A model generated the notes under the pieces. That model made no database searches, was not told where the DNA came from, and was given only the letters and a program-made list of their open reading frames with translations. The position numbers were made by a program, and so were the translations under genes. Shown piece after piece: positions 9,688 to 55,608 of a stretch of DNA of 64,000 bases. Within the stretch, counting starts at the first letter, position 1. The number at the start of each line of letters is the position of its first letter. Origin of the DNA: a phage; NCBI GenBank assembly GCA_012338575.1, contig GCA_012338575.1_3616.1. One strand, given 5' to 3'.

Positions 9688-9705
9688 TTTCTTAACTAAA
9701 CTATC

Positions 9706-9733
9706 AGGGGCTTTAAAAGGCCCCTTTCTTTTT
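9706..9733 (+). terminator. rho-independent terminator ending the rightward early block
   Basis: AGGGGC-tttaaaag-GCCCCT followed by TTCTTTTT. Confidence 0.65.
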
Positions 9734-10329
9734 GTCTGTATTTCTCCTACCACAAACGGCCCAGCCTGGCAAGTGGAATAATTGACTAGCCATCAATCCC
9801 ACACACTGTACAAATATACATGGAAAATAACTATTGCATAATTTTTCATTGTGTGGTAGCAAGTCCATTTTTACCCGTTTTCTCTCTCAAAATTGCACGT
9901 AATGCCGCTATTGCACAAAATTTAACCTGATGCACATCTTCAATATCTTGTCAACAACTAAAAATCTTTATAAGTCATACACTTACACACTCACAAAAGC
10001 GTGTTCTACGTGAAAAATCGAGTATAACTATAGCCGCCAGATCTCAGAATTTACGTACGCTCACCATTCTATAGTCTGCTAAGTATTTATTCCAACCATG
10101 GAATAACGGAATAGTCAATACCTGCATAAAATAATTATTCGTGTAAACTGCATAACATAAATCAGCTTATGTGTCAACATTCTTGGTAAACAGTCCGAAA
10201 TTGTAACGGTAAGTTATAATAAACAGAGAAATCTTTAGTCGTCTAATGTTTACTGTACATAACTATACTGACTGGAATCATTAGATGACTAAGAGAAAGA
10301 TAAGAAATAATTAACAATACAATTATTTT

Positions 10330-10520
10330 ATCTGTAACAATAAGGCAACTATGCAAACGAATATTATGGCGCGACGGAGTCGCGACATAATATAAAAGCA
10401 GTAACCATCACCCCCGTGATAGTTTGTCTGCAATCTATTAATCAGATCATAGTTGCCTTGTATTCAGTTAATCATGACATAACAAGCAAGGCAACTATAG
10501 ATCTGCTAATAGTTGCCCTG
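10330..10520. repeat. four copies of 12-bp motif ATAGTTGCC(T/C)TG in alternating orientation
   Basis: aaggcaactatg (10334), atagttgccttg (10451), caaggcaactat (10489), atagttgccctg (10509). Confidence 0.6.
10362..10392. repeat. 31-bp near-perfect palindrome
   Basis: TATTATGGCGCGAC-gga-GTCGCGACATAATA. Confidence 0.6.
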
Positions 10521-11359
10521 CTTTTATATTATGTCATAGGAACGCCCGAAGGGGTGACCTAGTCACCTGGCATAGCCAGCGAAAGATTATTAACTTGTTA
10601 ATTGTTAACTTGCTAATTGTTTTCATGCAAACGAATGTCATGGCTTATCCTATCTGTGTAAACAGTTAAGGTGTAAACTATCCAGGCGTAAACAGTCTAT
10701 GCGGGAACAATCTATACGTGAACAGTGAAACATGAAATAATAACAGTCGTTATTGTGTCGAAAGTGTATAAGGTGTATAAGGTGTCAGACAAGTTTTTCT
10801 CCTCTTTGTCAAGTGCTGCATGAAAATTTACAAACTGGTATGGTAGCATTTTTGCGGCCCTGTTTACATTCAGCGATGTATGTATAACCCTTGTTGTGTG
10901 GGCGTTTAGACGTCTGGACGGTCAGAAGTCCGCAGGTTAATATCTAATCTATTGGCTGCTAACTATATCCCACACAAATAGTAAGAAATATAATTGTTAT
11001 GTGCGTAAACGGTAACTCATGTTATCAATCCCTGTATGTATCGCCAGTGGTGCGCATAATGGGTATTATGTTAAATTGCCCGTAATGATAACTATTCTCA
11101 CAATGATAGGTATTCTCATTCAACCACATCAGATAGCTTGCAAATGTTGTGCCACTGTGTGAACGGCCTCGCCTATTAATTTGCCTCACTACCTCGATAT
11201 TTGAGAATTGTTATAAGAATGAGAAGTATTCCCATTCCGTCCGCCTGGCAGCACTCCTGTAGGTCCTGCAAGGACTCTAGCTGAAAGCTAGACCCTTCGG
11301 GCCTCCCTGTAGGTCAGGTCAAAATCGGGGTAGAACTGGGCCTATTTAGATATTTCTGG

Positions 11360-11505
11360 CTGGCTCTTCAGACATGTGTGGGAAAAGCCGACCCCTCCGG
11401 CGGCGGGGAGGGGGTCAATTAAAAAATTTACGTGGTGTATGAAGCGCTCTTCAGGTAAGGCATGTATTATGGGATGAAACCCTCTTCAGGTAAGGATATT
11501 TGTGG
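11360..11505. repeat. repeated CTCTTCAGG(TAAGG) motif cluster with GC hairpins
   Basis: ctcttcagac (11367), ctcttcaggtaagg (11447, 11487), more copies at 11883 and 12543; hairpin GACCCCTCC-ggcggc-GGGGAGGGGGTC. Confidence 0.5.
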
Positions 11506-12254
11506 GTGTGATATTTGCTGGAAAGCCAGATATGACGGGACTCCCGGCGGGGCAGGGGTAGTACAGACAGGGAAAATATGGGGGATGTAGTTGGGTGAAT
11601 TGATCAGACAGGTAGGGTATGGAATATGTTACAAGTATGTTAAATATGGAGGTCGAATATCTGTAGGATTTGTGTGTAAAATCAAAGACTTAAGTGGTGT
11701 TGTGGTATTTTCTATAAATAATTCAAGTTTAATAGGTAATATTTGCCTCTATCCACTTTGTGTGGTAAACAGATTCAGATGAGATTGGTTTACAAGTGTA
11801 TACATAATATACAAATTAAAGATACAAGAAACCCCCCTCCCCCTTCGGCTACCATTCACCTTTTCCTCTGACTGGTACTTAAACACTTATTCAGACTCTT
11901 CAGGTTATCACCCATATATCATATGGCAGTGACTGGTGTCCTCCGGCCCCTCTTTCGTCACCCGTCCGCTTCGCCATGCTAATGCCATAGCCAATGGTTC
12001 GGTTGTTCACCCTGTTCACTCAGGTGTATCTCCATACCCCTTCAAACCGAAGAGAACAGAAAACCCGAATTACTCGGTAAAAGAAAAGAGAAGAACTTAA
12101 TTTTATCAGGATAGGCAAGAATGTCAAGGCATGACTGCTCACTAAACAAGCAAACAGTCATGTGTGGGAGGTAAGTGATTGTGGTGGTAGGAAATTTAGT
12201 TGAAAGATGTGTTATAGGTGCTTCCAGCACTTTAGCCGGGCAGCTAATTGTGTG

Positions 12255-13434: not shown

Positions 13435-13746
13435 CTATACCCATGAGGGCTTATCAAGGTTGGAGTAGCTGAAAGGTGTCAAAAGGTGACTGTCAAAATC
13501 TCTCAAACTATCCAGATCTTTTTCCTCGTCCTGACACCATCTGTGCCTACATTTATTGTTGTAGTGCATGGAATGCATAGCGTTCTGCAACTTAACAGGC
13601 ACAAGTGATTCAGGGGTAGATAGTATTGTTGGGTATGCCAGAACCACCTCAAACAGTGGAAACACATCGAAACTAAAGTCTACCTCTGCAGAGGTTGATG
13701 GCATGTAGGAGTATTTAGCCGCCTTTGTAGACATAATCCACCCCAC
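13435..13746 (-). CDS. hypothetical protein (start uncertain)
   Basis: ORF overlapping 3' end of upstream gene; start may be internal Met. Confidence 0.3.
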   Translation of the reverse strand: MGWIMSTKAAKYSYMPSTSAEVDFSFDVFPLFEVVLAYPTILSTPESLVPVKLQNAMHSMHYNNKCRHRWCQDEEKDLDSLRDFDSHLLTPFSYSNLDKPSWV

Positions 13747-15218: not shown

Positions 15219-15506
15219 TCATAGTGCCTCTAAGATTTCATACCCTTCGGGTCGGAATACAAGCCACTCCGTGGCTCCGTTTGGTCGATACGCTTTATAC
15301 AGAACAACCTGATCTCGGCACATGCACATAGCTACATAGTTTTCATCCACACCTGCAGCCTGCATTGCAGCTTCTTCTCCGGCAACTGCTTTGCTTACAA
15401 CCTCCTTAGTTGGCAGGTGTGCGATCAGCTCGTCACCATCATTAATTCCAAAATGGCTGAGTTCTCCATTGGTATCTTTAATCTTAATCTTAACCAGATC
15501 TTTCAT
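15219..15506 (-). CDS. hypothetical protein (95 aa)
   Basis: ORF in leftward array. Confidence 0.45.
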   Translation of the reverse strand: MKDLVKIKIKDTNGELSHFGINDGDELIAHLPTKEVVSKAVAGEEAAMQAAGVDENYVAMCMCRDQVVLYKAYRPNGATEWLVFRPEGYEILEAL

Positions 15507-15835
15507 TAGTCTTCCTCCAGGTTCAAAGGCCCTAAGATTTCATATGCCAGATTAGAAGTTACCAGAGGGTCTTCTGCATCTTTAGTATTGTACCACCCAT
15601 GAATAACCAGAGTCCCACTTTGTTTCATGTCCAACTGGAACTCTTCTGCCGTTTCCTCATCCAGCTCCAAGATTTCCATAAGGTATTTGATGTTAGGAAG
15701 GTATGCAGCTGTTACAGTTCCCTCCACCAAACCTTCGGGCCAACCTACATCTGGATGACAAGTAGGAACCAGGTTGGTCAGCTTAATGGTGTACGCTTTT
15801 TCTGCACGAGCCTTCAGTAACGGGTCAATCTTCAT
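15506..15835 (-). CDS. hypothetical protein (109 aa)
   Basis: ORF, start/stop overlap with neighbours. Confidence 0.45.
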   Translation of the reverse strand: MKIDPLLKARAEKAYTIKLTNLVPTCHPDVGWPEGLVEGTVTAAYLPNIKYLMEILELDEETAEEFQLDMKQSGTLVIHGWYNTKDAEDPLVTSNLAYEILGPLNLEED

Positions 15836-16185
15836 TATTCGTTCTCCTCTGTGGTGCCTGCTTCCAGTAACAAGTTAAGAATATCTTCTGCACAAGGCTC
15901 ATAGAACTCTTGGCCTTCATTATCAATGATTCGGTAGTCATCCCCGCGAATAATCAGAGGATCACTCTCAAAATTATCGAGACCTTTAACAACGACAACA
16001 CGATCGATTGCCATCATTGTAAGAACTTTATCGACATCTTCCTCTGCTACACCGTACTGCAGCAGAATGTCTTTAGTAGGAGGAACAGCATCCACCACAA
16101 CACCGTTACCAAAACCTTCCGGAAGTTCAGCTAAAATATCTTCCGGAACCACATTAACATCAAAACCAGTAATTTCTACTTTCAT
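15835..16185 (-). CDS. small acidic protein, possible distant member of paralog family A (116 aa)
   Basis: N-terminus MKVEITG...; acidic. Confidence 0.45.
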   Translation of the reverse strand: MKVEITGFDVNVVPEDILAELPEGFGNGVVVDAVPPTKDILLQYGVAEEDVDKVLTMMAIDRVVVVKGLDNFESDPLIIRGDDYRIIDNEGQEFYEPCAEDILNLLLEAGTTEENE

Positions 16186-16446
16186 TTACAGCACCTCTTC
16201 GTCAACTACTTCATAAAAATGGCCTGGGATTGCAATAGCGTTCTCACCTTCACCTACAAACACAGTTCCGTCAAGAATCAACATCATAAGAATTTCTGGA
16301 ATATCCTCTTCCGGAACGTTGCCAAAACCTTTAATCAGCGTGTAGGTTGGAAGATTTACCTCTAAGATGTCACCATCTTTAGAGCGGAAATCAACACCAT
16401 CCTGAATCTCTGCCATTTCAAGGTTTTTCAGTTTAATCTTCATCAA
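16186..16446 (-). CDS. small acidic protein, paralog family A (86 aa)
   Basis: MMKIKLKNLE... ends FYEVVDEEVL. Confidence 0.5.
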   Translation of the reverse strand: MMKIKLKNLEMAEIQDGVDFRSKDGDILEVNLPTYTLIKGFGNVPEEDIPEILMMLILDGTVFVGEGENAIAIPGHFYEVVDEEVL

Positions 16447-16522
16447 TCAGTCTCCTGTCTTGTTAAGATGAAGGTATTATTTCACACAGGGTTGGTGTTG
16501 TCAACACCTGTGTGCAAGAAAA

Positions 16523-16918
16523 TTACTGAAACAGTGCGGATAAATTACCTTCTGGTGGGAACTTATCTGCCAAAAACGGTGTTAGCACAGTAGCCTTCTG
16601 AAGATCTGGGGTCCACTCGTTGTTCAGAACATCCCAGTAGTACGCAATGTTGCTGTGTGGGTGCCGCATTACGAACTTTTTCCCTTCGTAATCATCTGAA
16701 ACCTCTACAGAAGAAATAACAACAGAATCTTCAAGGGTTTCTTCATAGAAAGATCCGCCTTCAAATTTCCAACGAGATGCAAGAGCCCCTGCCTTGAACG
16801 CTGCAGATAAAGGACTGTCGGCAAGAACATACATTTCTTGCACTCTGTCGCTGCGATCTTTGCTTCTTACATTGTATACAGTATCTGAGCTATACTCAAC
16901 ACGGTATAGTCTTACCAT
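16523..16918 (-). CDS. hypothetical protein, paralog family B (131 aa)
   Basis: Shares KKFVMRHPHSNIAYYWDVLNNEWTP motif with 18725-19123 (VFVIVHPDSRVKHYWNARTKTWTP). Confidence 0.5.
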   Translation of the reverse strand: MVRLYRVEYSSDTVYNVRSKDRSDRVQEMYVLADSPLSAAFKAGALASRWKFEGGSFYEETLEDSVVISSVEVSDDYEGKKFVMRHPHSNIAYYWDVLNNEWTPDLQKATVLTPFLADKFPPEGNLSALFQ

Positions 16919-17250
16919 TACCGCACCTCCTCAATAACTTCCACATCTGAACCTACCACAAATGCAAAAGGACAGGTTTCATGAAAGACATCCGGATCGC
17001 CGCCAAGCTTGCTAACAATCTCTCCACCACTAATAAACACAAGCTCACCGATATTCATAAGATTGCTGAAATAGTACCCATAATGATTAAAGAATGCAGC
17101 AGGGTCAGGTAGACTAGTGGCCTCAAGCACTACATCGGTTGAGGTTACTTTCTTATCATAACCTCTCGCCTTTTGAGATGCGAGATCTGCAGAATCCTCA
17201 GGCGACCGGAGATGCACAGGAATTGTTTCACCAATAAAGCGTACTTTCAT
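16918..17250 (-). CDS. small acidic protein, paralog family A (about 110 aa)
   Basis: Starts MKVRFIGE (internal ATG after GGTGA), ends SDVEVIEEVR. Confidence 0.45.
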   Translation of the reverse strand: MKVRFIGETIPVHLRSPEDSADLASQKARGYDKKVTSTDVVLEATSLPDPAAFFNHYGYYFSNLMNIGELVFISGGEIVSKLGGDPDVFHETCPFAFVVGSDVEVIEEVR

Positions 17251-17254
17251 ATTA

Positions 17255-17518
17255 TCACCCAACAACCATAACTTCAAAAGGGGTCATGAACGAATAAACG
17301 GCATCATCATCTGCTTCAAGGAATGCTCCCAAAGACTTCATGTCTGAGCCCTTGACAAATACAAGGTTTTGATCAAAAGCTTCTTGAGGATCAATCCGAT
17401 ACATATTTCGTAGAATATCGCTTATCTCCTCATCAAGAGGTGAGTATGCTGTGCACGTTTTTCCGATCAAGCTTTGAGAATCAGGGTATCCACCTGAAGT
17501 TTTAAAATAAACAATCAT
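17255..17518 (-). CDS. small acidic protein, family A-like (87 aa)
   Basis: LVFVKGSDMKSLGAF resembles family A core. Confidence 0.45.
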   Translation of the reverse strand: MIVYFKTSGGYPDSQSLIGKTCTAYSPLDEEISDILRNMYRIDPQEAFDQNLVFVKGSDMKSLGAFLEADDDAVYSFMTPFEVMVVG

Positions 17519-17609
17519 ATAGTATCACCTCTGGTAAGAGATTGGGATTCCTTTCCCACAAATAATTACAAACCTTCCTTATCGAGGAAGTATGCTAATC
17601 CAAGCAGGA

Positions 17610-17879
17610 TTATTCCTCTACAATCTCATACACATCCGGAGTTACAATCAACTCTTCTCCGTTACCCGGTGCAACAAACACCACCATTCCTTCAGGTGTG
17701 TGCTTTTTAGCCATCTCGATAACATCTTCTCGCAGAGCTGGCTCCATCAGATCAAAACCTTCACCTAGGGCATCACGAACCACCTTCATATAGTCAACTG
17801 GTTGTGCTTCGACAATCATGCCTTCAACCAGTCCACAGTTTTTGTCTGCCAGCTCAGTTTTGAATAATTTAATTTTCAT
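17610..17879 (-). CDS. small acidic protein, paralog family A (89 aa)
   Basis: MKIKLFKTELAD... ends DVYEIVEE. Confidence 0.5.
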   Translation of the reverse strand: MKIKLFKTELADKNCGLVEGMIVEAQPVDYMKVVRDALGEGFDLMEPALREDVIEMAKKHTPEGMVVFVAPGNGEELIVTPDVYEIVEE

Positions 17880-18016
17880 TTAGAGGTCTCCTCAATTATT
17901 TGATATTAATAGCCGTAACCTAACACATTAACTACAACTGCGATTGCAAACATAATTTCAAAGCATGCAATCTCTACATTCGGGACTAATTTCTTAATCA
18001 TGCCCATTGTAGCACC

Positions 18017-18334
18017 TCATTCTCCAAAGTCAATCTTTACTTTGCCTTTCCCTTTACCTTTCTTTCCACCGCATTTAGCCAGCTGACGTGCTGCAACATC
18101 TACCATACGGTCAGTTGCCTCGTAAGCATCACTACCTTTAGCCTTGGCAATAACTTCTTTTCCAGAATTGTCAAAAATGAGCGCCATAACTTCCTGGTGA
18201 TCATTTTCAACTTTTACACTCACACGTGCATAGTTGGCAGAGGGGTGCAAACGCTCCAGCTTAGACATTTTGTGGGAAATGAAAGACACCATACCTTCAG
18301 TGATTTCTACGTTGCCAGTGATTTCAATTTGCAT
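18017..18334 (-). CDS. hpf: ribosome hibernation promoting factor / RaiA-family homolog
   Basis: MQIEITGNVEITEGMVSFISHKMSKLERL...VKVEND...DAYEATDRMVDVAARQLAK matches recalled E. coli HPF (MQLNITGNNVEITEALREFVTAKFAKLEQY...VLKVEK...DMYAAIDGLIDKLARQL) along its length. Confidence 0.7.
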   Translation of the reverse strand: MQIEITGNVEITEGMVSFISHKMSKLERLHPSANYARVSVKVENDHQEVMALIFDNSGKEVIAKAKGSDAYEATDRMVDVAARQLAKCGGKKGKGKGKVKIDFGE

Positions 18335-18416
18335 AACGTGTTCCTTTTAAAGAAGAGGGAACCAAACCCTCTTTGAAAACAATGATACTAAATCTGAAGC
18401 GTTGTGTCAACAGTTT

Positions 18417-18707
18417 TTACAGCTTGTTGTCGATAGTTTTTAAAATATCCACAGCAAGATCTGCCATTTTTCGAACATACTCTGCAAACTCAACAGGATC
18501 CTTGATCAAAGAATTCACAGGGTCGTACCCTAGAGCGTTTAAAATGGCTGCAGCATCTACAACCTTCTCATCATTTGCGAAGATCTCTCCGTCAAACTTG
18601 TAGGTCCATTTTGAGTCAACCTTAGCAGAGCAGGGTTTGTCCATGCTTGTTACACCATCGTCTTTAAACTCTCCTGCGTTATCAATATTTAGAATTAAAT
18701 CCATCAT
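18417..18707 (-). CDS. hypothetical protein (96 aa)
   Basis: ORF in leftward array. Confidence 0.45.
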   Translation of the reverse strand: MMDLILNIDNAGEFKDDGVTSMDKPCSAKVDSKWTYKFDGEIFANDEKVVDAAAILNALGYDPVNSLIKDPVEFAEYVRKMADLAVDILKTIDNKL

Positions 18708-18724
18708 GGTGACACCTCACTGTT

Positions 18725-19123
18725 TCAGTTTAGCCTTTCTTCAACAACCCCATAACTTGGGGCAGAGTCAAGAGCTTTCTGGTTTAAAAGTGGAGTAGCA
18801 GAATCTGCAAACGGTGTCCAAGTTTTTGTTCTGGCATTCCAGTAATGCTTCACTCTGGAATCTGGATGCACTATAACAAAAACTTTTTCACTTGTCAACA
18901 CATTAATTTCTTCTACACCCTTGCTGATAATTTCTCCGTCATAGCCCCCAGTCTGGTATCCTTCGTACCAGGTTCTTGCATAGGCATAGCCAGCCTGCCA
19001 GCATGCAGCCTCCTCCGAGGTGGAGACTACGTAGAAGTCTTTCTCAAATTCTGGAATACGCCCTTGCTTTACGCTCCAAGCCCCGCGAATTTTCATTGTA
19101 ACTTTAAACAGTTTATTTTTCAC
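18725..19123 (-). CDS. hypothetical protein, paralog family B (132 aa)
   Basis: See 16523-16918. Confidence 0.5.
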   Translation of the reverse strand: MKNKLFKVTMKIRGAWSVKQGRIPEFEKDFYVVSTSEEAACWQAGYAYARTWYEGYQTGGYDGEIISKGVEEINVLTSEKVFVIVHPDSRVKHYWNARTKTWTPFADSATPLLNQKALDSAPSYGVVEERLN

Positions 19124-19135
19124 AACGGTTACCCA

Positions 19136-19390
19136 TCACAGCTCTACAATATCTGCATCTGACCCTACCCCAAAGGCATAGTAGGACTCTTCCCCGAAAT
19201 AATATTCAGGTGCACCAGCGGTGATCAGGTCTGATCCCAAGATAAACACCACGTTGTGGCCTACATAACCGTGATGTTGCCGCACAGGATCATCCCACGG
19301 CAACCCTTCAAAGTATACCGCAGGAACGACCTTTCCATTCAGGAAGGATTGTCCCAAGTAGACGTTAGAATCAAGAATTTTAACCTTCAT
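19136..19390 (-). CDS. small acidic protein, paralog family A (84 aa)
   Basis: MKVKILDSNVYLGQ...GSDLITAGAPEYY...DADIVEL. Confidence 0.55.
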   Translation of the reverse strand: MKVKILDSNVYLGQSFLNGKVVPAVYFEGLPWDDPVRQHHGYVGHNVVFILGSDLITAGAPEYYFGEESYYAFGVGSDADIVEL

Positions 19391-19607
19391 GATCGTCCTC
19401 CACTACCTCTACATCCTCACCTAGGGCAAAGTTGTAGGTCCACTGACTGTCAAAGCATTCCTGAGATGCACCAGCGGCAATAAGATCTGCTCCTTTTATT
19501 TTTAAAAGGTCAGGGTAATCTTCGTTAGGGACAGCAGTAAACACTTTTCCTACTAAAGGCTCCTGACCAATATAGAAGCTTGAATCTAAAACTTTAACTT
19601 TCATCAA
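19380..19607 (-). CDS. small acidic protein, paralog family A (75 aa)
   Basis: MMKVKVLDSSFYIGQ...GADLIAAGASQE...DVEVVEDD. Confidence 0.55.
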   Translation of the reverse strand: MMKVKVLDSSFYIGQEPLVGKVFTAVPNEDYPDLLKIKGADLIAAGASQECFDSQWTYNFALGEDVEVVEDDHEG

Positions 19608-19891
19608 CGGTCTCCATCAGGTGGTTGTGGGACGTAAACACTGTTACGAATATCGTCCGCAGTATAGTAATAAGTGTCTCCAACCCTATCTCTGGCTGCA
19701 ATGTACTCTGCTATACCAATAAGTGCCATTGATTTGGTGGCGTATCTTCCCAACTCGTTAGCTCCCCAGTAGAATTTAGACCAATAGGGAATAAGACCGA
19801 ACAAATATACCTTTTGACGAACTTCCCAGTAAGTGCCTTTCCCGACAAGTTTAAACTCAACTTCACCACTGTTAATCTTTTTCATTATCAA
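19604..19891 (-). CDS. hypothetical protein (95 aa)
   Basis: ORF, overlapping stops/starts. Confidence 0.45.
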   Translation of the reverse strand: MIMKKINSGEVEFKLVGKGTYWEVRQKVYLFGLIPYWSKFYWGANELGRYATKSMALIGIAEYIAARDRVGDTYYYTADDIRNSVYVPQPPDGDR

Positions 19892-20184
19892 TCTCCCTCT
19901 ACCGTGGTCGGATTGTCAGTAAGAAATTGAGCATTAGCTGGAGGCACGCCTGACATTTTCCACACAACCATAAGTTTGTAACCAGGCACTCTATTAAGCG
20001 CAGATCGAGTAGAGTTTGTGCACGTATACTTTCGCTTTCCAAACCCGTTCTCCATCATAATCCAGTACCCAGTATCTTTGTCACCAGGTATTGGTAGACC
20101 ACCTTCATCAACCCACTGAATGGACCACGGCACGATGGCTACAGCTTTATATTTAAACTTTTTAAACCACTCAAAAAGTTTCAT
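19888..20184 (-). CDS. hypothetical protein (98 aa)
   Basis: ORF in array. Confidence 0.45.
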   Translation of the reverse strand: MKLFEWFKKFKYKAVAIVPWSIQWVDEGGLPIPGDKDTGYWIMMENGFGKRKYTCTNSTRSALNRVPGYKLMVVWKMSGVPPANAQFLTDNPTTVEGD

Positions 20185-20279
20185 AATTCAGCCTCGCATA
20201 GACATAATCACTATAAACAGGCAAACAATGAATCCGAATGCCACGCCACCCATAAACGTTAATATTGATGCAATCATAG

Positions 20280-20465
20280 TCAATCAGCCTCGCTTGGCAA
20301 CTCTTCTACCTTAACATGCCGAAAAGTGTTACCGTAATGGTTGATCCAGGACATCAGCTCACTTTCTTGCTCTTCCTCTGAGATGGACTCTCGAATGCTG
20401 ACAAGTTTTAAGAAAACCCAATCACAATCTGCACCCATTCTACCAGACAGACAATAATGCTTCAT
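20280..20465 (-). CDS. hypothetical protein (61 aa)
   Basis: ORF in array. Confidence 0.35.
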   Translation of the reverse strand: MKHYCLSGRMGADCDWVFLKLVSIRESISEEEQESELMSWINHYGNTFRHVKVEELPSEAD

Positions 20466-20484
20466 AAAAACCCTCCACCCTGGT

Positions 20485-20685
20485 TTAGAATACTGCCTCT
20501 TTTAATGATCCAAGGAGCAGCAGGTGTGAAATCTGATCCACATTCATGGTAGATTCAATCTCCTCTTTTTTGAAAGGTTCTCGGCAAAACAGAACTACAT
20601 TTGGGTTTTCGCTACGCACTATATAATACAGATCGTTCAAATCATTCTCATAGTAGGTATTAAATTTAAGAATTTTGTCACTCAT
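20485..20685 (-). CDS. hypothetical protein (66 aa)
   Basis: ORF in array. Confidence 0.4.
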   Translation of the reverse strand: MSDKILKFNTYYENDLNDLYYIVRSENPNVVLFCREPFKKEEIESTMNVDQISHLLLLGSLKEAVF

Positions 20686-20969
20686 TTTCTAATCCTCTTC
20701 TTAGATTTTTGGGGAGAAACGCTTTCTGCAATACGAGACAAACGTTCTTCTGAAGCCTTGCCTATTCCAGGTTTTTTGAGTGGATTATCTTTATGACCAC
20801 AATCCAATTGGATATTGGATACCTCTCCAACCTTGTAAGTTAATTCTAGCAAAAGGTTGTCGTCCTTGTCAAATGTTCTTACGATAAATTTTTTATCGTT
20901 CTCCTGAACTTCATATCTGGTACCTGCAGTATACAGCATGGTGCCATCAGTGTAGGATATCCAAATCAT
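20682..20969 (-). CDS. hypothetical protein (95 aa)
   Basis: ORF in array. Confidence 0.45.
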   Translation of the reverse strand: MIWISYTDGTMLYTAGTRYEVQENDKKFIVRTFDKDDNLLLELTYKVGEVSNIQLDCGHKDNPLKKPGIGKASEERLSRIAESVSPQKSKKRIRK

Positions 20970-21313
20970 TGCACCTCCTTCTGCTGCAACAGCATTAACT
21001 CTTTGTTGGAAATCTTTACTGCTGTCTTTATTGTTCCATCTTCACGGAACCACGACCAGAATTCTACAGTGTCACCACTATCAAGCAAGGCATGACCATG
21101 GTAAAAATCCTTGTCCTTAGACAGTTTCTCATCTATATCTGCATCGACACATTCGTGATCCATAGCATTTTGCCTGAATGCATCGGTTATGCCAATGCAT
21201 GCCTTGCTCTCAAGACTAGTATATCCAATATCTTTTAATTCAGTTTCCCAAGTCCAGTATCCTACAAAAGCTACAACAGCTACCCACATTAATATCGATT
21301 TAATCTTTGGCAT
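20966..21313 (-). CDS. membrane-anchored/secreted protein (115 aa)
   Basis: N-terminal hydrophobic segment ILMWVAVVAFVGYW. Confidence 0.45.
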   Translation of the reverse strand: MPKIKSILMWVAVVAFVGYWTWETELKDIGYTSLESKACIGITDAFRQNAMDHECVDADIDEKLSKDKDFYHGHALLDSGDTVEFWSWFREDGTIKTAVKISNKELMLLQQKEVQ

Positions 21314-21373
21314 TCTCTCTACCTCTTTCTTAGTTTATTTAGTTATGGCACATCCTTTGTGCCTTATTGCACA

Positions 21374-21835
21374 CTACTTAAACAACAGTTCAAGATAGTG
21401 CAAAATTAACAGAAGTTGAATTACGCCTAGCACAACGGCAAGTATGTTAATCTTAGAATCAAAAAACTTCTTAACTTTTACCCTAAAAGGCTCCTTAATG
21501 TCCTTTACGATCCTATTTATAGATGATTTCATATCCCTGATTACCATCCTGAACATTAGAGACGGATCTTCCTTCTCTGTAACAGAATCGAAAACATACT
21601 CTCTTCGGTCATAAGGACCTCCAGATCTGCGTATTAACCTCTCCACAGAGACCTCGTACGACACACCTGTAACGTAATCATCTATGACAAGGAGTGACGG
21701 GTCTTTATCGTCCAAGGGTATCAAAGTTATCTTTCCAGATTTTGTTAAAATTTCTCCTTTTTCAAGCAAGGTGTACCAATGCTCTCTACCAAGATTGTTG
21801 AGGCACGTTTTTACATATTTAACAAACATCGTCAC
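21374..21835 (-). CDS. hypothetical protein with C-terminal TM helix (153 aa)
   Basis: C-terminus INILAVVLGVIQLLLILHYL. Confidence 0.45.
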   Translation of the reverse strand: MTMFVKYVKTCLNNLGREHWYTLLEKGEILTKSGKITLIPLDDKDPSLLVIDDYVTGVSYEVSVERLIRRSGGPYDRREYVFDSVTEKEDPSLMFRMVIRDMKSSINRIVKDIKEPFRVKVKKFFDSKINILAVVLGVIQLLLILHYLELLFK

Positions 21836-22035
21836 CCCTCATCGCACGTCTGATATAACCACTCTATAAAATCTTGATACCATTCGCCCTCAGAGCGCTC
21901 CGTAGGCCAATAATCTTCACCCTCTCGTGCATTAAAATCTGAGTATTCAACTTTCCACTCCTTTACCAGCTCGTGGAGAAGGTTTTCAGCCTGCTCTAAA
22001 GATTTATTTTTTACCATTGCTGTCTCCTTTTTCAA
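21832..22035 (-). CDS. hypothetical protein (67 aa)
   Basis: ORF in array. Confidence 0.4.
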   Translation of the reverse strand: MKKETAMVKNKSLEQAENLLHELVKEWKVEYSDFNAREGEDYWPTERSEGEWYQDFIEWLYQTCDEG

Positions 22036-22236
22036 GATAGTTATACATCAGAACTACACCACCTAAGATGGCTACCAGTAACAATACCCCAGATAGCATC
22101 TCAATAAACATGGCTTGAAACACTGGAAGGTCTCCCTAAGTTAACGCACCATTTTAAATACATGCTCTTTTCCCATAAAGGTGCCTGGCTAAGATCTGCG
22201 TAGAACGCAATCTCTTTAAGAACAGTATAAACAGTT

Positions 22237-22473
22237 TTAGGTGCGGTCTCCATCCCTACTCTCCTTTTTCTCCTTACGAATATTCTTGTAGTAATCAACT
22301 AGGCACATTATTACGATGAAGATAACAATAGGCCAAAAAGGTGCAGCAGTGATGATGGTGATAAAATCATCAAACTTCACCTTTCGTCTAGACACGATGC
22401 ATATACCTGTCAAGAATACCGCTGTTATAACGGCTATTACCAGGTAACCTATTAGCACAACATTTATACTCAT
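22237..22473 (-). CDS. small membrane protein (78 aa, two predicted TM helices)
   Basis: Hydrophobic segments VVLIGYLVIAVITAVFLTGICIV and ITAAPFWPIVIFIVIMCLV. Confidence 0.45.
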   Translation of the reverse strand: MSINVVLIGYLVIAVITAVFLTGICIVSRRKVKFDDFITIITAAPFWPIVIFIVIMCLVDYYKNIRKEKKESRDGDRT

Positions 22474-22491
22474 TAGCCCTCCCTTTGTAGG

Positions 22492-23037
22492 TTAAATTGT
22501 ATACTGCAGATGGTTGCTGATGGTGTCAAGAAAATTATCCCGTTCTTTCTCAGAGTTTTCACGGGTGTATCTGAAAAACATATCGAGAATAACCTTATTG
22601 ATATATTCCAGCTCCTCTGTGTTCAGGTACTTAGCAGGGTCTACAATGACATCCCAAGTCTCATACAGACCGCACTCATGATACCCCCAACGCTGCTCAA
22701 TTGTCAAGCTGAGTGGCAAATCTTTACCGTCACAAACAACCTTCCATCTACAAATGCTGGTATCTGGGCGTATCTGTGCACGGTATACCTGTACAAAATC
22801 CAGTTTGAATTTGAGGTACTCGTCATACAATTTAAGCACAAAGCTCTCGATTTGGGGAGACACTTTTGCAGCAAACTGTGCGTATTTATACTTGCACTGG
22901 ATGATCTTTCTGCGTTTTGCAGTTAAATTTTTTGCAGCCAGTTGTTCTTCAGTATATCTCCATCTACGATCAACAAACGCAACAGGGTCTTTGTCCCCAT
23001 AGAGGTCTTCCCAGTTAATCAGAAGCATACCTGTCAC
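22492..23037 (-). CDS. hypothetical protein (181 aa)
   Basis: ORF in array. Confidence 0.5.
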   Translation of the reverse strand: MTGMLLINWEDLYGDKDPVAFVDRRWRYTEEQLAAKNLTAKRRKIIQCKYKYAQFAAKVSPQIESFVLKLYDEYLKFKLDFVQVYRAQIRPDTSICRWKVVCDGKDLPLSLTIEQRWGYHECGLYETWDVIVDPAKYLNTEELEYINKVILDMFFRYTRENSEKERDNFLDTISNHLQYTI

Positions 23038-23267
23038 TCCTCCACAACTTCAAGGCCTTTGCCGCCTCGTTCTGGTAGATTACTTAAAGACAGGTAATAC
23101 GTATAGTCAGGAGAGATCCTGCCAGACTCTGCACCTGCAGCTAATAAATCTTTTCCCTTAACCATGACAACATTCTCGTTTGCAGATAGCTGTTTTGCTT
23201 CCACAATTTTACCAACACAGTCAACCAAGGAAGGGTACCCTAAATCTGTAAGAAATTTAACTTTCAT
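23034..23267 (-). CDS. small acidic protein, paralog family A (77 aa)
   Basis: MKVKFLTDLGYP...GKDLLAAGAESG...GLEVVEE. Confidence 0.55.
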   Translation of the reverse strand: MKVKFLTDLGYPSLVDCVGKIVEAKQLSANENVVMVKGKDLLAAGAESGRISPDYTYYLSLSNLPERGGKGLEVVEE

Positions 23268-23306
23268 GCTACCTCCTACTTATACCGTCCCTGGTAAGAT
23301 AAATTA

Positions 23307-54668: not shown

Positions 54669-54743
54669 GCCCTGTTAGCTTAGTGGATAAAGCAGCGGCC
54701 TTCTAAGCCGTTGACACTGGTTCGAGTCCAGTACGGGGTGCCA
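54669..54743 (+). tRNA. tRNA-Arg (anticodon TCT)
   Basis: Manually folded cloverleaf: acceptor GCCCTGT/ACGGGGT, D-arm GCTT-AGTGGATA-AAGC, anticodon loop CTTCTAA, T-arm ACTGG-TTCGAGT-CCAGT, CCA encoded. Confidence 0.8.
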
Positions 54744-54873
54744 AGTTCTTTTTAATGTAGCTTACTTTAGCAGAGTAAATCTTCGGCAAGTGGCGGTAAC
54801 CACTTTACCGATACCTCATAGTTAGTGGTGAGAACACTAGCTATTTTAAAAAGAATTTAAATATTAGTATTTA

Positions 54874-54961
54874 GGTGAGTTAATTCCGTAGGGGTAGCGG
54901 GGCAGACTGTAAATCTGTTATCATTGCGATTCGGGTGGTTCGACTCCATCACTCACCACCA
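54874..54961 (+). tRNA. tRNA-Tyr (anticodon GTA), long variable arm
   Basis: Acceptor GGTGAGT/ACTCACC, anticodon loop CTGTAAA, T-loop GGTTCGACTCC, CCA encoded; 85 nt plus CCA. Confidence 0.8.
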
Positions 54962-55075
54962 AATTTATATTTTTAAATGCATAAATCATACAGGTAATGG
55001 CATTGATATTTATCGTCGTTTATACTAGTCACTAACTGCTCGAAAATCAGTGTCATTATCAGTATTGTTTATAAA

Positions 55076-55166
55076 AGAGGGTAGGGAGCAATGGTGCTCA
55101 AGCGGTCTTGAAAACCGTCCCGTTGAGGATGACTCGATGATGGTTCGATTCCATTATCCTCTGCCA
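55076..55166 (+). tRNA. tRNA-Ser (anticodon TGA), long variable arm
   Basis: Acceptor AGAGGGT/ATCCTCT, anticodon loop CTTGAAA, T-arm GATGG-TTCGATT-CCATT, CCA encoded. Confidence 0.75.
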
Positions 55167-55264
55167 TATTGTTGACCTTGTAATTAAGCGAAAGCCGGAA
55201 GCAGAACCGGATTATCAAATGTTACAGTCGTCATCGCCGACTAGCAACATGGTCAACATACTGA

Positions 55265-55361
55265 GCTAGGTAAGCCCTTTGGCAAGGGCGAGGATTTTTA
55301 ATCCTGAAAATAGACGAGGTAGTCGTTGAATACATAGGTGGTTCGATTCCATCACCTAGCA
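55265..55361 (+). other. aberrant tRNA-like element (canonical acceptor, D- and T-arms; anticodon region replaced/expanded)
   Basis: Acceptor GCTAGGT/ACCTAGC, D-arm GCCC-TTTGGCAA-GGGC, T-arm GGTGG-TTCGATT-CCATC, but middle is AGGATT-TTT-AATCCT hairpin plus about 30 extra nt; no encoded CCA. Confidence 0.4.
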
Positions 55362-55368
55362 CCTTTTT

Positions 55369-55444
55369 GCTGATGTAGCACAATTGGTAGTGCAATTGAT
55401 TTGTAATCAATAGGTTGCAGGTTCAAGTCCTGCCATCAGCACCA
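55369..55444 (+). tRNA. tRNA-Thr (anticodon TGT)
   Basis: Acceptor GCTGATG/CATCAGC, D-arm GCAC-AATTGGTA-GTGC, anticodon stem ATTGA/TCAAT loop TTTGTAA, T-arm GCAGG-TTCAAGT-CCTGC, CCA. Confidence 0.85.
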
Positions 55445-55445
55445 T

Positions 55446-55520
55446 GGCCCTGTAGCTGGAAGGTTCAAGCAAGCGACTCATAATCGCCAGACGGTGGTTC
55501 AATTCCACCCAGGGCCACCA
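55446..55520 (+). tRNA. tRNA-Met (anticodon CAT; elongator or Ile2-type)
   Basis: Acceptor GGCCCTG/CAGGGCC, anticodon loop CTCATAA, T-arm GGTGG-TTCAATT-CCACC, CCA; paired 1:72 argues against initiator. Confidence 0.75.
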
Positions 55521-55531
55521 AATAGTAAATA

Positions 55532-55608
55532 CTCCGCGTAGCTCAGCTTGGTAGAGCGCCTGATTTGGGATCAGGAGGTCGAGTGTTCGAATCACTCCGT
55601 GGAGACCA
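55532..55608 (+). tRNA. tRNA-Pro (anticodon TGG)
   Basis: Acceptor CTCCGCG/CGTGGAG, D-arm GCTC-AGCTTGGTA-GAGC, anticodon stem CCTGA/TCAGG loop TTTGGGA, T-arm GAGTG-TTCGAAT-CACTC, CCA. Confidence 0.85.

Follow-up and report, generated by a model that had tools for sequence, protein, structure and literature searches.

Vequintaviruses are broad-host-range phages used for Escherichia coli typing, biocontrol and therapy, and their early genes are mostly unannotated. Runs of small early paralogous genes are familiar in large phages. Here we analysed a stretch of phage DNA of 64,000 nucleotides (contig GCA_012338575.1_3616.1 of the GenBank assembly GCA_012338575.1), hereafter the window, in which ten small open reading frames (ORFs) of the leftward block, named A to J, are grouped into two families of five members each. 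By sequence comparison, the phage of the window is an rV5-like Vequintavirus: the region 15800-23300 has 98% identity to Escherichia phage FFH2 and 97% to rV5, and it matches 122 Vequintavirus records and none outside this genus, also in the more sensitive blastn mode. Paralogy is not mentioned in the rV5 genome paper. Literature searches on rV5-like phages retrieved nothing relevant on paralogs, a transcriptome or an SH3-like anti-defence protein, and no description of either family was found.

The nearest previous grouping of these proteins is that of PHROGs, where the domain of the first family (C, D, F, G and H; family 1) is already clustered (PHROGs 5009, 13367, 7345, 8603 and others, all without assigned function), with C, D and all members of the second family (A, B, E, I and J; family 2) placed in separate single-genus PHROGs. 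F, G and H match phrog_5009 at 1e-32 to 1e-38 (H at 6.7e-36) and D at 1.7e-4, and 35 of 36 diverse proteins of family 1 also match this PHROG. The PHROG entries do not record the arrangement of the paralogs as five plus five, their fold or a link to a transposon phenotype. A comparable run of family 1 genes occurs in RB49, an unrelated T4-like virulent phage (Straboviridae), at another genome location (NC_005066, 41488-46580; locus L018). The small hypothetical ORFs RB49p073, 074, 071, 076 and 080, beside g38, match the family 1 hidden Markov model (HMM) with E-values of 2e-8, 3e-5, 4e-4, 3e-3 and 2e-2, representing at least three and possibly five paralogs, without family 2 genes or genes of the X type (X1 and X2, a third family that adjoins family 1 in the window). 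The family 1 domain has, therefore, undergone an independent tandem expansion there.

Regarding the fold, the closest known structures are the SH3-like small barrels (eukaryotic SH3, the KOW domains of NusG, Spt5 and L24, and PsaE). Both families share this fold in the models, with sequence identity of 6-24%, and have it in common also with the OLE-RNA-associated protein OapB. Family 1 differs from the known barrels by a helix and a long loop after strand 3, and family 2 by two helices inserted between strands 2 and 3.

Two families among the small ORFs

The original prediction had described one multi-copy family of small acidic proteins with at least six to eight members, A to H. All eight ORFs are present at the coordinates given, every one on the minus strand, and their counterparts in rV5 are hypothetical proteins (Table 1), but the single family was not borne out. 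The similarity among the ORFs exceeds chance and, as judged from the sequences, defines two families: C, D, F, G and H do belong together, while A, B and E form a second family with I and J, two ORFs that had not been listed.

Within family 1, BLASTP among the window ORFs connects F with G (1.7e-13), G with H (8e-7), C with F (1e-3) and D with H (1e-2), and when the 392 ORFs of the window were searched with an HMM made from F, G and H, D (2e-6) and C (4e-5) were retrieved. Comparison of the ortholog groups by hhalign gave probabilities of 99.6% for F-G, 99.1% for G-H, 95% for C-F and 87-90% for D against F, G or H. A, B and E had no match to family 1 members by window BLASTP or with the F+G+H HMM. 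On the other hand, an HMM made from A, B and E retrieves the neighbouring ORFs I and J. When each family 2 group was left out in turn, the HMM of the remaining ones recovered it, with E-values of 2e-8 for A, 9e-7 for B, 5e-5 for I, 8e-4 for J and 1e-3 for E; each member was the best ORF outside the training set, and the next-best ORF had an E-value of at least 0.4. Pairwise hhalign with diverged orthologs added gave high probabilities for A-B (90%) and A-J (83%) alone, and lower ones for pairs with E or I (E-I 49% over 85 columns, A-I 36%, I-J 31%). E is the weakest-supported member of the ten.

The original prediction would fall if the similarity were compositional only, which was examined with a shuffle control that keeps composition (2000 shuffles, leave-one-out HMMs). 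Within each family, all left-out members score 18-65 bits against no more than 12 bits in the shuffles. The range is 19-65 bits in family 1, and in family 2 each left-out member scores higher than every one of its 2000 shuffles (E, 17.9 bits against a shuffle maximum of 10.2; J, 21.8 against 6.9; I, 21.4 against 9.1). Between the families the picture is different. Against the family 1 HMM, the five family 2 proteins have E-values of at least 1.5 and shuffle p values of 0.02-0.25, with the scores of A, B and E equalled by 34-267 of the 2000 shuffles. Taking both directions, cross-family HMM scores range from -0.9 to 4.0 bits and are equalled by 34-823 of 2000 shuffles, so profile similarity does not unite the ten in a single superfamily. 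Aligning family 1 with family 2 by hhalign gave 9-24% probability, restricted to the N-terminal ~30 columns (the MKxK strand and the G-x-V-V-E-A strand).

The motifs proposed for the single family could be retained only in part. F, G and H clearly have the central G.DL(I/L)AAGA segment, C and D have a degenerate form of it, and A, B and E lack it. Both families contain the start MK(V/I)K and the end (V/Y)E(V/I)VE, although M1 is the sole invariant residue in the alignment of all eight listed ORFs. In family 1, the positions Y12, G39, L42, G46, Y58 and F60 (G numbering), which include the G-x-D/E-L-x-x-x-G-A turn, are conserved in 89-97% of the 36 diverse members; F, G and H have all of them, with partial degeneration in C (GGEIVSKLGG) and D (GSDMKSLGA). 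Acidity, which had been claimed for the listed proteins, is shared by all ten, with isoelectric points (pI) of 4.05-5.07 and net charges of -2 to -21, but this is not a distinctive property in this block, since 43% of its small minus-strand ORFs have a pI below 5.1. A Shine-Dalgarno sequence precedes each of the ten genes.

Predicted fold, conservation and relatives

Both families are predicted to be five-stranded SH3-like small beta-barrels. The AlphaFold2 model of G, based on the 36-sequence alignment, has a predicted local distance difference test score (pLDDT) of 93.5 and a predicted template modelling score of 0.81, with strands at residues 2-6, 22-27, 34-38, 57-62 and 66-71 and a short helix at 39-44. 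The model of B, based on family 2 sequences (pLDDT 89.3), has five strands in the same order as G, with the two helices between strands 2 and 3. That these two models agree in fold and strand order supports the idea of one fold contained in the original prediction, without being proof of a shared ancestry. Paralogs of either family vary most in the loop from strand 2 to strand 3, which has 6 residues in G and H and about 30-35 in C, D, E, A and B, with insertions of 0 to about 35 residues.

We were not able to recover this relationship with sequence models. The SH3 models of Pfam (SH3_1 and relatives) had no match at E ≤1 for the ten proteins or the 36 family 1 members, and the KOW and PsaE models of Pfam gave none at this threshold either. 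For neither family was a match obtained in Pfam, in NCBIfam or among PDB sequences. Structural matches in a viral model library were all uncharacterised proteins from diverse enterobacterial phages.

The ten genes are real and under purifying selection, with ratios of nonsynonymous to synonymous substitution rates (dN/dS) of 0.05-0.19 and ORFs that are intact in 4-5 of 5 compared genomes at DNA divergence of up to ~10%. The exception in reading frame is I, split into two ORFs in rV5. In the diverged metagenomic relative L017, all ten are present with order kept and 29-74% amino-acid identity, and no additional family member was found elsewhere in the FFH2 genome. On this evidence, the expansion is ancient and every copy was retained. 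Some natural variants were found: P0011 is a G/F fusion with its junction at the AAGA motif, P0033 is a truncated D from phage V18, and P0086 is a chimera of a DUF7399 N-terminus with the C-terminal half of J. Together with the split I, they indicate that single copies can be lost or recombined.

A profile search of 1.84 billion representative proteins with family 1 retrieved only 37 clusters at E ≤1e-3, most of them of 63-87 amino acids (aa) with the consensus MKVKLLNDGGY...GKVVEA...G.ELI.AGA...Y.F..G.E.EVIEE. A few relatives have two or three tandem copies of the domain (P0107, P0115 and P0122), which indicates that it is an autonomous module; no Pfam domain was found in the extra regions of the metagenomic tandem-domain relatives. 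In E. coli lambdoid prophages, family 1 genes are located between the Q antiterminator and the holin, and the closest relatives of H outside the genus are from such prophages (P0032). In Morganella and other hosts they are in the early-left region, beside NinX-like and MT-A70 genes and near the integrase. In tblastn searches of phage genomes, G finds only Vequintavirus records and the family consensus almost nothing. Family 2 was found only in Vequintavirus-like genomes, and X-type genes do not co-occur with family 1 outside Vequintavirus. Thus, ten anonymous ORFs could be sorted into two SH3-like families, one of them spread over unrelated phages and prophages.

A strain-specific requirement and the candidate functions

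Transposon-insertion sequencing (HIDEN-SEQ) is available for Bas54 (Escherichia phage MaxBurger, MZ501093; bioRxiv 10.1101/2025.11.20.689424), whose genes were mapped to the window by BLASTP with 95-99% identity. In K-12, the genes I, J, A, B, F, G, H, X1 and X2 are classified as non-essential and C, D and E as intermediate, with 69-73% of their TA sites hit; none of the ten is essential (bioRxiv 10.1101/2025.11.20.689424). In a clinical uropathogenic isolate compared with K-12, no reads remain for insertions in X1, C and D (adjusted p 0), with log2 fold changes (log2FC) of -6.77, -6.17 and -7.16, respectively. X2 is partly depleted (log2FC -2.14, adjusted p 0), E is lower without being significant (-2.78), and the remaining seven members of the two families show no change (-0.30 to +0.98) (bioRxiv 10.1101/2025.11.20.689424). 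The D-C-X1 stretch is required in one clinical E. coli isolate, and two family members and X1 are connected to a conditional-essentiality signal that already existed and was not discussed, the text of the preprint being silent on the three orthologs. We take the isolate to be CFE311: the command line names sample 311, and the sheet titled resampling_K-12_vs_CFE303 (supplementary file 9, Data S6) has the identical numbers of the next sheet.

Two other Bas54 genes, bas54_0063 and bas54_0140, are, with experimental support, required against the predicted defence system DS-28 of E. coli CFE311 (bioRxiv 10.1101/2025.11.20.689424). They are from the same phage genus, are non-essential in K-12 and, like C, D and X1, are depleted in the same clinical-isolate comparison. 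The ortholog of bas54_0140 in the window (ORF at ~13435-13734, minus strand, 99% identity) is in the same leftward block, 1.5 kb away. It has no match to the HMM of either family and, unlike C, D and X1, its partner defence system is known.

The reading we prefer, to which we give an even chance, is that these proteins are stand-alone binding modules for host-specific takeover or counter-defence, with the target set by the variable loop between strands 2 and 3. Each paralog would be expressed early and bind a different host or phage partner, and the ten proteins would represent a repertoire of host-specific takeover or counter-defence factors. In family 1, Tyr12, the G-x-D-L-x-x-x-G-A turn and Tyr58 may be a shared scaffold or contact surface. 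The suggestion of diversified binders, decoys or inhibitors of host factors made in the original prediction is thus partly sustained, by the generic binding fold, the sigma-70-type promoters, the accessory placement of family 1 in temperate phages and the strain-specific need for C, D and X1; nothing supports DNA mimicry in particular. D-C-X1 is a concrete candidate for a host-specific counter-defence cassette. A more specific proposal, tentative and in our view rather unlikely, is that this cassette is a so far unrecognised multi-component counter-defence system for infecting certain clinical E. coli and that the ten paralogs are specificity modules, each against a different immune or host-range barrier. 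If true, the ten-paralog repertoire would be a counterpart, in a phage, to the multigene families that large DNA viruses of eukaryotes have.

Several points weigh against the binding-module reading. Seven of the ten genes have no phenotype in the single clinical isolate, and the genes are conserved within the genus rather than hypervariable, unlike what a fast arms race would leave. None of the ten proteins has a known partner or activity, and early timing comes from the promoters only, the literature search having found no transcriptome. The loss of C and D insertions could also be an effect on X1, with translation possibly coupled, since the stop codon of C overlaps the start of X1 by 1 nt and the transposon has, at its end, a stop codon in each of the three reading frames. 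This leads to the main rival, which we consider doubtful as it stands: the clinical-isolate phenotype would be due to X1 alone, with C and D insertions disturbing its expression, and the SH3-like proteins would have another, possibly minor role. It is favoured by the contiguous and co-oriented arrangement of C, D and X1 and by the depletion of the paralog X2 as well. However, the depletion of X2 is not mirrored by insertions in F and G directly upstream, which argues against strong polarity in an equivalent arrangement. The transposon carries no terminator, and insertions upstream of essential genes are reported by the preprint authors to be usually tolerated (bioRxiv 10.1101/2025.11.20.689424).

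It is distinctly improbable, in our assessment, that the paralogs are general takeover factors binding conserved host machinery (RNA polymerase, ribosome or replisome) rather than acting on strain-variable immunity. In favour of this role, surfaces of the ribosome or RNA polymerase are common binding sites of KOW and other SH3-like domains, conservation of the genes is strong within the genus, and a ClpP-like protease, a PhoH-like ATPase and a homolog of a ribosome hibernation factor are encoded in the same accessory block. Against it are the dispensability of all ten in K-12 and the strain-specific nature of the only phenotype seen. The acidity would be compatible with a role like that of the DNA mimics Ocr, ArdA and Arn, in which the paralogs, as mimics or decoys, would block restriction enzymes or other DNA-binding defences; the known mimics are likewise small acidic early proteins of phages or plasmids, and the median pI is 4.5 in the 36 diverse family 1 members. 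They have, however, a different fold and no sequence match, none of them appears in the list of fold matches, and within family 1 the net charge is variable (+1 to -11). We regard this function as very improbable. Equally little credence is given to nucleic-acid-binding regulators of phage gene expression (Sm, KOW or Tudor type), a role that the fold shared with KOW domains and OapB could suggest, since the acidity of all ten proteins would be unusual in nucleic-acid binders, the sequences show no basic patch, and the genes are dispensable in K-12.

Gene arrangement and neighbouring features

Table 1. Paralogous genes, X-type genes and promoters of the leftward block, in order of position in the window.
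Feature	Coordinates	Strand	Assignment	Size and features	Counterpart
I	15219-15506	-	family 2	95 aa	rV5 gp148/gp149 (two ORFs); bas54_0146
J	15506-15835	-	family 2	109 aa	rV5 gp147; bas54_0147
A	15835-16185	-	family 2	116 aa, net charge -21, pI 4.05	rV5 gp146; bas54_0148
B	16186-16443	-	family 2	85 aa, modelled	rV5 gp145; bas54_0149
Promoter	16476-16504	-	sigma-70-type, ahead of B-A-J-I	11/12 consensus, extended -10	rV5 P150
X1	16523-16918	-	third family, phrog_7379	131 aa	bas54_0150
C	16918-17250	-	family 1	110 aa, two insertions	rV5 gp143; bas54_0151
D	17255-17518	-	family 1	87 aa, insertion between strands 2 and 3	rV5 gp142; bas54_0152
E	17610-17879	-	family 2	89 aa	rV5 gp141; bas54_0153
Promoter	18382-18410	-	sigma-70-type, ahead of HPF gene	11/12 consensus	rV5 P144
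X2	18725-19123	-	X1 paralog, phrog_7379	132 aa	bas54_0157
F	19136-19390	-	family 1	84 aa, 11-nt overlap with G	rV5 gp136; bas54_0158
G	19380-19604	-	family 1	74 aa, modelled	rV5 gp135; bas54_0159
H	23034-23267	-	family 1	77 aa	rV5 gp122; bas54_0166

B and G probably start with ATG codons (16443 and 19604, respectively), each 3 nt inside a TTG-started ORF. I, J, A and B form a tight tandem array behind a strong sigma-70-type promoter. The other promoter, ahead of the HPF gene, would also transcribe E, D, C and X1 unless a terminator intervenes. D-C and G-F are tandem pairs, with X1 and X2 directly downstream, respectively. X1 and X2 are themselves paralogous (BLASTP 1e-11), and the gene order G-F-X2 against D-C-X1 fits the simple duplication of a module of three genes. 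In the hhalign comparisons, however, F and G are far closer to each other than to C or D, and gene conversion or another history would therefore be involved.

Between the paralog groups, an ORF at 18017-18334 (minus strand) encodes a homolog of the ribosome hibernation factor HPF/RaiA (Pfam Ribosomal_S30AE, 8.8e-13), which has its own sigma-70-type promoter and is non-essential in Bas54. We also considered the paralogs as adaptors of the nearby ClpP-like protease and found no evidence for it. Further to the left, at ~9688-12254, a segment of ~2.5 kb without annotated genes lies at the switch of the coding strand and corresponds to an intergenic region of Bas54 that tolerates no transposon insertions. 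Only short repeats and one perfect 18-nt inverted repeat (10384-10401 and 10518-10535) were found in it. On the other side of the window, at 54669-55608 (plus strand), a cluster of six tRNAs was predicted: Arg, Ser, Thr, Met, Pro and an odd one with a four-base anticodon.

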